Part shown: positions 4,190 to 4,530 of the stretch, piece after piece
Position numbering within the stretch: position 1 is the first letter of the stretch
How the letters are laid out: each line of letters begins with the position of its first letter
Virus record (IMG/VR): IMGVR_UViG_2663762849_000013
From: a virus
Lineage: Duplodnaviria > Heunggongvirae > Uroviricota > Caudoviricetes
Length of the DNA stretch: 5,076 nucleotides
Direction: 5' to 3' (one strand)
Translations under genes and position numbers: made by a program
Notes under the pieces: model-generated
What the model was told of the DNA's origin: nothing
The model's input: the letters and a program-made list of their open reading frames with translations, nothing else
Database searches by the model: none

Positions 4190-4530
4190 ATTGATAACAG
4201 AGGGCGTTGCAGCGGGGTTGTCACTTAAGCGTATGGTCAACCTGACAACCCGGTGTCCTCAACGGGGGAAGAAATAACCCCGCCATACTTACCGCCGCAC
4301 CATTTCGCGGGTTGCCACAACCGGAAGCGCACGGTCGACGAAAATTTAACGACAGGCTATCTATGAACCAGCTACCTCGCCGTGCGCTTTCGCGTTATGG
4401 TCTGACTTTTCAGGGAAATATCCTTTCAGTAAACTGTCAGTGCCGGATGCTCACCCGCGTCCGGCGCACGCACTCCACCTCACCCGTGGAGAACTACTTA
4501 ATTACCAACCTTAGCTTCGTTGGTTAGCTA

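Follow-up and report, generated by a model that had tools for sequence, protein, structure and literature searches.

The window analysed here (5,076 nucleotides of the IMG/VR virus record IMGVR_UViG_2663762849_000013) carries on its minus strand the early-left (dicBF) operon of a Qin-like lambdoid prophage. This report concerns the spacer between ydfC and the DicF small RNA (sRNA) of that operon and, in particular, a structured RNA module of approximately 100 nucleotides inside the spacer. All transcript features described below are on the minus strand unless stated otherwise. ydfC (4531..4749, 72 amino acids) is present in the open reading frame (ORF) list and is annotated as "protein YdfC" by the Prokaryotic Genome Annotation Pipeline (PGAP) in near-identical loci; it forms the upstream boundary of the spacer. 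DicF and its intrinsic terminator hairpin occupy 4132..4189, with the 53-nucleotide form of the sRNA at 4189..4137 and the U-run at 4136..4132. The 52-nucleotide covariance model of Rfam family RF00039 matches 4137-4188 (76.7 bits, E-value: 2.9e-16, gathering score 48) and so lies wholly outside the spacer. The interval between these genes (4190-4530) is 341 nucleotides long and its ORFs are not preserved, in agreement with a preliminary description of it as non-coding. It is an untranslated, highly structured part of the dicF precursor. The closest annotated loci are those of E. coli O157:H7 (99.5% identity) and K-12 (approximately 97% identity), and the spacer with DicF is matched in 4094 of 5426 complete E. 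coli genomes, at up to 7 copies per genome. Although the two-step maturation of DicF is already known, it is new that the body of its 190-nucleotide precursor is a discrete, covarying and horizontally mobile RNA fold that is absent from Rfam.

DicF is among the oldest known bacterial sRNAs, and its two-step maturation is textbook material. It is processed from the polycistronic dicBp transcript (Ragunathan et al. 2023, PMC10448788, confirming Faubladier, Cam & Bouche 1990). RNase III makes the 5' end of a 190-nucleotide species, which is lost in an rnc deletion and whose 5' end was mapped by primer extension. RNase E makes the 5' end of the 53-nucleotide DicF: when RNase E is inactivated, this form is lost and the 190-nucleotide species accumulates (PMC10448788). 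The K-12 Qin dicBF operon is the same locus, with the same spacer, the same RNase III-dependent and RNase E-dependent species and a 3' end defined by the terminator. The window differs from it in that IS1 severs the operon from dicBp. The accessible literature on DicF processing describes no secondary structure or conservation for the 190-nucleotide body.

In the window, the RNase III cut was placed by counting 190 nucleotides back from the terminator U-run (4132-4137), as the nucleotide was not read directly. The dicBp start was not located by a consensus scan, and the published "813/814" numbering is not convertible independently of the 190-nucleotide length. Counted in this way, the cut falls at approximately 4322-4326, between ...GCGCUUCC and GGUUGUGG..., within the 3' arm and near the base of a long hairpin (4316..4400; inverted repeat I2, also present in the minimum free energy [MFE] fold). 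The stem of this hairpin comprises at least 21 pairs and its tip is variable, with CCAUAACGCGAAAGCGCACGGCG as its 5' arm and CGACCGUGCGCUUCCGGUUGUGG as its 3' arm (4322-4334/4380-4392 plus extensions). Over 70 spacer variants, the 21 counted pairs are 98.6-99.6% paired, and the changes are one-sided and wobble-compatible only. RNase III substrates typically span some two helical turns, or at least roughly 20 bp, and we infer that the 4316-4400 hairpin is the RNase III substrate. In the known RNase III stalks (lambda N leader, sib, 16S/23S), a long near-perfect hairpin in a polycistronic transcript is cut to free the downstream RNA; the DicF hairpin differs from these in being local rather than long-range and in giving only the 5' end of its product. 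A long-range stalk between CGUGCGCUU (4333..4325) and AAGCGCACG downstream of DicF was considered and rejected: the MFE fold of 4060-4410 prefers the local hairpin. The fold of this segment is no better than those of shuffles (z = -1.3). The motif AAGCGCACG(G) does occur twice, once within the 5' arm of this hairpin (4380-4392) and again downstream of DicF (approximately 4090-4100). Either copy could pair with CCGUGCGCUU of the 3' arm (4322-4334), and an alternative long-range stalk enclosing the module and DicF is conceivable.

The RNase E cut lies between 4190 and 4189 in the single-stranded sequence ...AUCAAU↓UUUCUGG..., at the end of a C/AU-rich linker (CGCUGCAACGCCCUCUGUUAUCAAU, 4190..4212) that is largely unpaired in the predicted folds, one of which pairs part of it. 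The site matches RN↓WUU, a preference of RNase E that Chao et al. are said to have reported in 2017. Both the length and the sequence of the linker vary among the loci that carry the module.

The module itself (4213..4311) lies between these two cuts. It is scored at 123.9 bits by the covariance model R1 and is supported by pair counts and shuffles. It is predicted to consist of two adjacent hairpins, one formed by helices Pb and P2 and the other by helix P3, that are joined by a kissing interaction. Helix Pb pairs 4294-4291 with 4254-4251, helix P2 (which has a tip of variable length) pairs 4282-4278 with 4267-4263 and helix P3 pairs 4250-4243 with 4223-4216. All three show covariation, as does the 6-bp kissing helix, in which GUAUGG (4288-4283) pairs with CCAUAC (4236-4231). 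The GUAUGG strand belongs to the internal loop that separates Pb from P2, and the CCAUAC strand to the loop of P3. Helix Pa (CCGCG/CGCGG, 4310-4306/4299-4295) is conserved without compensatory change and so is kept only as tentative. The MFE structure of the isolated window module reproduces Pa, Pb, P2 and P3. A different closing helix (GCGGCG/CGCUGC) was rejected: 89% can pair, with no double change, 394 of 500 shuffles are as good and the helix conflicts with Pa and Pb. A literature search with sequence strings from the module returned only unrelated primer matches.

Support for the fold comes from approximately 70 distinct variants collected by pattern scans of viral contigs. In a MAFFT alignment, 94.2% of the cells are paired, compared with 33-53% in slid controls, and six pairs are changed on both sides. 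In a model-based alignment of 68 distinct sequences, 96.3% are paired and eight pairs are changed on both sides (22 such cells); none of 500 shuffles is as high, and slid partners give 32-50% pairing with 0-3 double-changed pairs. The individual changes affect each of the covarying helices. In Pb, U-A becomes C-G in the P7 type and U-G in variant L111. In the kissing helix, U-A becomes C-G in P1, with U-G intermediates. The second pair of P2 is seen as G-C, U-A and A-U, and the third pair of P3, counted from the loop, changes from U-A to C-G in 6 of the 68 distinct sequences, all of P1/P7 type. Four variants from an independent 5'-motif scan (L143, L161, L163 and L164) were outside the model building and also fit the fold: a G-C pair of P3 is A-U in L164 (GGAUUGUCA/UGACAAUCC), and P2 is CGAGG/CCUCG in L163. 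Besides the helices, the near-invariant unpaired nucleotides GCGGCGGUAAGUAUGGC and CAGGUUGACCAU are common to P1 and the lambdoid phages. What has been a "long untranslated region" thus becomes a defined element with testable helices.

The module is conserved on its own. In a distant BLAST comparison with phage genomes, the segment from approximately 4321 to approximately 4198, which is the 5' part of the 190-nucleotide precursor without DicF, matches at 75-88% identity in phage cdtI, twelve Stx2c phages, 2H10, Salmonella phage F1055, the "Actinobacillus" phage pPE4, P7 and P1. Similarity to the cdtI-type phages starts at approximately 4321, which is the position deduced for the RNase III cut, and the sequences flanking the module are unrelated in P1, cdtI and Qin. 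DicF does not accompany the module in P1/P7, cdtI, 2H10, the Stx2c phages or F1055. The orientation and setting are constant: the module is invariably in the sense direction within a repressor-controlled early operon, and an intrinsic terminator (hairpin plus U-run) invariably lies 20-45 nucleotides downstream of it. In P1/P7, the module is found approximately 40 nucleotides after the C1-controlled Pban promoters and is followed by an 8-bp UUCG terminator, with tRNA genes and ban up to 2.6 kb downstream. The order in cdtI is cI, its terminator, a strong promoter (pL, TTGACA-16-CATAAT), 290 nucleotides, the module, an 11-bp terminator hairpin and the first ORF. A cdtI-like layout is also found in 2H10, F1055, pPE4, mEp460, HannyBb and Evi, and in the last four of these the module is directly upstream of dicB or kil. 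A total of 511 plasmid records carry the module, nearly all of them P1-like phage-plasmids of Escherichia, Salmonella, Klebsiella and Shigella. The fold is therefore common to the leader of the P1 ban operon and the pL leaders of many temperate phages, and E. coli K-12 carries it as well.

The likeness of the P1 copy to the DicF locus was noticed earlier, because the P1 annotation contains a "dicF-like region" (NC_005856 68791-68892, Lobocka et al. 2004) that overlaps the P1 module and its terminator. The annotation gives neither structure nor function, and what the P1 region resembles is the module upstream of DicF rather than the 53-nucleotide DicF. One relative lacks precisely this element: phage phiSTEC1589-Stx1c (L141 3501-3790), which has an annotated N gene, keeps the segment with stem B (described below) and the RNase III hairpin but has no module. 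Here the RNase III hairpin is immediately followed by a DicF-like sRNA whose seed differs (CAACAUUGCUGUGUGUAGUCAUUGGCGG...), and the RNase III cut alone could define the 5' end of that sRNA.

Three arrangements at module-bearing loci may be recorded here. In phage pPE4 (L013 2604-2760), one module is followed by two tandem DicF-like units, each a linker plus a GGCGGGUAUCCG... terminator, ahead of kil. A boxA-like motif (UGCUCUCAG or UGCUCUCUUCG) is located 12-15 nucleotides upstream of Pa in the cdtI, F1055, L048 and L064 types (L012 approximately 2490-2500 and equivalent positions in L136 and L048; window 4326-4335). The boxA of rrn and lambda is UGCUCUUUA, and the Qin type has GUGCGCUUCC at that position. 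Finally, the L024 locus (1644-1775) is without the RNase III hairpin; its join falls between AACGCGAAAGCGC, from the hairpin's 5' arm, and CCGCGAAAUGGCGC, from helix Pa. These sequences are alike, which suggests recombination between the two related segments.

The preliminary description had drawn attention to two stems in the spacer and proposed that they could be the processing substrates that release DicF from the polycistronic RNA. The first of these, stem A, is exact: its 8-bp stem (GGTTGTCA at 4216-4223 with TGACAACC at 4243-4250) lies, as measured, 26-27 nucleotides from the DicF 5' end, where 27 had been given. It extends to 9 bp (4215-4223/4243-4251; feature 4215..4251, from the sequence and a repeat finder) around a 19-nucleotide loop. 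This hairpin corresponds to helix P3 of the module; the CCAUAC kissing strand is located in its loop. Of 2000 dinucleotide-shuffled versions of the spacer, 2.8% contain a perfect hairpin of at least 9 bp with a loop of 3-30 nucleotides, and 10% contain one of at least 8 bp. The second, stem B, pairs GCCGGA (4465..4460) with UCCGGC (4447..4442). It exists as described (GCCGGA-N12-TCCGGC; feature 4442..4465, from the sequence, the repeat finder and the MFE fold), although its arms at 4442-4447 and 4460-4465 are 3 nucleotides away from the position "about 4445..4468" first given. It is listed by the repeat finder as I5 (9-nucleotide arms at 89%, 6-nucleotide loop). Six-bp stems such as this are expected by chance, because four are observed in the spacer versus 1.75 per shuffle. 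Stem B is one of several local hairpins in the 5' half of the spacer. Among the Qin-type variants it is invariant except for one disruptive and one wobble change, and in other mosaic types its segment is swapped for unrelated hairpins; no evidence for a specific role of stem B was found. The 5' fragment that contains it is destabilised by processing (PMC10448788).

It is very improbable that stems A and B are themselves the nuclease substrates that release DicF, and this proposal was already largely refuted by the published mapping. The spacer does carry the release signals, but neither of the named stems is a mapped substrate. The RNase III-dependent end is 190 nucleotides from the 3' end, at neither stem; the mapping figure displays sequence only from GGUAGCUGG (approximately 4376) onward, and stem B is beyond it (PMC10448788). 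Stem A lies inside the 190-nucleotide intermediate, between the RNase III and RNase E cuts, and stem B is upstream of the RNase III cut, in the 5' fragment that is discarded. At 9 bp and 6-8 bp, the stems are too short for typical RNase III substrates, in contrast to the hairpin of 21 or more pairs at 4316-4400, and RNase E cleaves single-stranded RNA. What speaks for the proposal is that both stems exist, that stem A is conserved close to the DicF 5' end and that a structured element adjoining a single-stranded site can aid RNase E entry. The check on conservation and covariation that had been suggested came out differently for the two: stem A is conserved and covaries, so the objection of no conservation does not apply to it, and stem B shows no compensatory change within the Qin-type spacer. 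As first written, the finding of the stems adds little to what is known of DicF maturation.

The arrangement of the transcript is very probably as follows. A series of local hairpins, stem B among them, comes first and is followed by the 4316-4400 hairpin, in which the RNase III cut near 4322-4326 makes the 5' end of the 190-nucleotide intermediate. Next is the module (4311-4213), in which GUAUGG pairs with CCAUAC, and last the AU-rich linker, which RNase E cuts between 4190 and 4189 to give the 53-nucleotide DicF. We favour the view that the module is a self-contained fold which serves as a processing and stability scaffold for precursors of DicF-type sRNAs, and assign this a probability of roughly 0.35. 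With approximately 100 nucleotides locked in a compact structure, only the linker before the terminator hairpin would be left single-stranded, which would focus RNase E on one site. The module could also shield the 5' end made by RNase III, such that the 190-nucleotide species persists as a reservoir. It may further act as a mobile unit to which phages join different linker or seed sequences and terminator hairpins; linker and seed sequences differ among loci, and the module is kept. The module always precedes a hairpin and U-run, similarity to other phages starts at the presumptive RNase III cut and phiSTEC1589-Stx1c, which is without the module, has its RNase III hairpin adjoining the sRNA; these observations are counted in favour of a scaffold. 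If it is correct, such a scaffold would account for the joining of different regulatory seeds to a single maturation cassette by phages. To our knowledge, precursors of the ArcZ, RprA and CpxQ type have no conserved, covarying, mobile structured domain directly upstream of the cut. The maturation of these and other 3'-derived sRNAs by RNase E is otherwise similar, with an AU-rich single-stranded cut site, a 5'-monophosphate and an end at an intrinsic terminator (PMC9438474).

Several observations weigh against the scaffold. Taken alone, the module is not thermodynamically unusual (z from -2.1 to +0.8 in seven homologues), and the MFE structure of the P1 homologue is a different fold; because the z-scores are not significant and the P1 MFE structure differs, the case rests on comparative evidence. 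This evidence is itself of low diversity (effective sequence number 1.22), and few lineages contribute the compensatory changes. The first search pattern fixed twelve of the loop bases, which in the second scan are nearly, but not fully, invariant. A plain scaffold would not obviously need near-invariant unpaired bases, which suggests a specific partner. In sRNAs, conservation is usually highest in the seed, but the module-bearing loci show the reverse. The exact RNase III nucleotide, moreover, is deduced from the 190-nucleotide length.

These unpaired bases are better explained, as are the constant terminator and the absence of N, if the module acts on the RNA polymerase that made it, as do putL and putR of phage HK022. 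By analogy, the module would bind the polymerase and cause read-through of the next intrinsic terminator, which would allow expression of dicB or kil and the rest of the early operon, while unmodified complexes would terminate and yield the sRNA. This alternative is only slightly less probable than the scaffold. The put RNAs are likewise cis-acting RNAs of approximately 70-100 nucleotides with two stem-loops and tertiary pairing, found upstream of terminators in lambdoid early operons without N (King 1996; Banik-Maiti 1997; Hwang 2022, PMC9378689). The module has this layout: it has two adjacent stem-loops of approximately 80 nucleotides with tertiary pairing, resembling the V-shaped two-stem put RNA (PMC9378689), and it is always in the sense direction in a repressor-controlled early transcript, upstream of an intrinsic terminator that precedes needed genes. 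Near-invariant unpaired bases would fit recognition by a host machine. No N-like ORF, annotated or otherwise, was detected in the interval from the repressor gene to the module in Qin, cdtI, 2H10, the Stx2c phages or F1055, nor in pPE4, mEp460, HannyBb, Evi or the viral-contig types, and the one N-bearing relative examined (phiSTEC1589-Stx1c) has kept both flanks and is missing the module. The absence of N may, however, merely reflect shared ancestry of the immunity regions, and N proteins are short and diverse and could be missed. Furthermore, model R1 has no match at E-values up to 10 in the HK022 immunity region, which holds both putL and putR, and only a short resemblance to put (UCAGGNUGA) can be seen by eye. 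Each phage has only one module, and the complete cdtI genome contains no second, putR-like copy. A substantial fraction of the transcripts from dicBp end at the DicF terminator, and none were detected past ydfD in K-12 (PMC10448788), which argues against strongly processive antitermination. In a more far-reaching version of this alternative, the module would represent a second, sequence-unrelated put-like class, found in the early operons of N-less lambdoid prophages and P1-like phage-plasmids, with DicF as the product of transcription complexes that escape modification. We regard this version as hardly less probable than the alternative itself. If the module does act on RNA polymerase, it would explain how N-less lambdoid phages pass the first early terminator, and RNA-only antitermination would be common and not a curiosity of HK022.

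Compared with the scaffold, three further explanations are improbable. [quoted passage not shown] Its conservation independently of DicF, its near-invariant loops and junctions and the coincidence of both its ends with nuclease cuts fit such a role, but there is no known partner for the RNA, it matches no Rfam family and there is no evidence of an accumulating fragment of this size (the published Northern blots used ydfA and dicF probes; PMC10448788). There is only a slight chance that the module has no function of its own and owes its conservation to hitch-hiking with DicF, dicB or kil and to horizontal spread in recent times. In favour of this, identity among most copies is 90-99%, the effective number of sequences is low and at least one phage (phiSTEC1589-Stx1c) can dispense with the module. 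Against this, the module remains 75-88% identical in P1, cdtI and Qin despite unrelated flanks, the substitutions are concentrated in the helices as compensatory or wobble changes and the P2 tip, but not the stem that bears it, is variable in length and sequence. Least convincing is a riboswitch-like attenuator, in which binding of a small ligand by the module would toggle the downstream terminator. An aptamer-sized, pseudoknot-like fold is indeed followed by a terminator, GGCGGUA in the module resembles the 5' arm of the DicF terminator and the MFE structure of the window's 190-nucleotide RNA pairs the 5' strand of the module with the 3' arm of the terminator. This pairing is predicted only there, however, and all of the supported helices are local, with no closing helix shared with the terminator; the candidate GCGGCG/CGCUGC helix lacks compensatory change and is matched by most shuffles, as noted above. 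The linker also varies in sequence and length (21 to 43 nucleotides), and the P1 terminator has no complementarity to the module. An attenuator is very unlikely.

As a whole, the spacer is exceptionally stable when folded (MFE -155.6 kcal/mol, z = -3.5, with none of 100 shuffles as stable). No curated RNA family was found over 4190-4530 on either strand (Rfam 15 cmscan, E-value up to 1). Apart from DicF, this permissive scan gave just an STnc100-like match below threshold and noise from IS009 at 3599-3649, and no tRNA-like element was found in the region by ARAGORN. With respect to coding capacity, the preliminary description stated that no minus-strand ORF exceeds about 21 codons. This is correct for ATG starts, the longest of which gives 21 amino acids (4221..4286), but the ORF list also contains a GTG-start ORF of 31 amino acids (4332..4237). 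The latter was rejected as a protein gene, as its frame changes among close relatives via 1-nucleotide indels in the P2 loop; among homologues, the P2 tip differs in length by non-multiples of three. On the plus strand, PGAP annotates a 54-amino acid "hypothetical protein" (WP_001302137.1) in an O157 relative (L001 4514-4678), corresponding to window 4363-4527. This ORF has no annotation in K-12 and is antisense to the mosaic hairpin region of the spacer; the call is probably spurious, made over structured non-coding DNA.

Upstream of ydfC, the left end of IS1 (GGTGATGCTGCCAACTTACTGAT...; insA start at approximately 4897) is inserted within ydfB (window 4843-5076), and similarity to the intact O157 operon ends exactly at 4842/4843. 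Because IS1 interrupts ydfB at approximately 4843, ydfC, DicF and dicB are cut off from dicBp in this genome. Downstream of DicF are a dicB-like gene (3962..3774), a DUF1482/ydfD-like gene and a recE-like exonuclease gene. The last of these (1022-3493) is split into 2939..3493 (184 amino acids) and 1022..2920 (632 amino acids), while the O157 relative has a single recE-like gene of approximately 814 amino acids. The split looks like a frameshift or stop near 2920-2940 and fits a decaying prophage. The sub-threshold STnc100 match (3930-4139; 34.7 bits versus a gathering score of 47, E-value: 5.9e-5) spans the DicF-dicB intergenic region and the start of dicB. Finally, a direct repeat on the transcript (family D3, 4114-4125/4181-4192) has one copy, AAUUUUCUGGUG, at the DicF 5' end and another, AAUUUUGUGAUG, directly after the terminator, near the expected 3' end of the published 72-nucleotide DicF.

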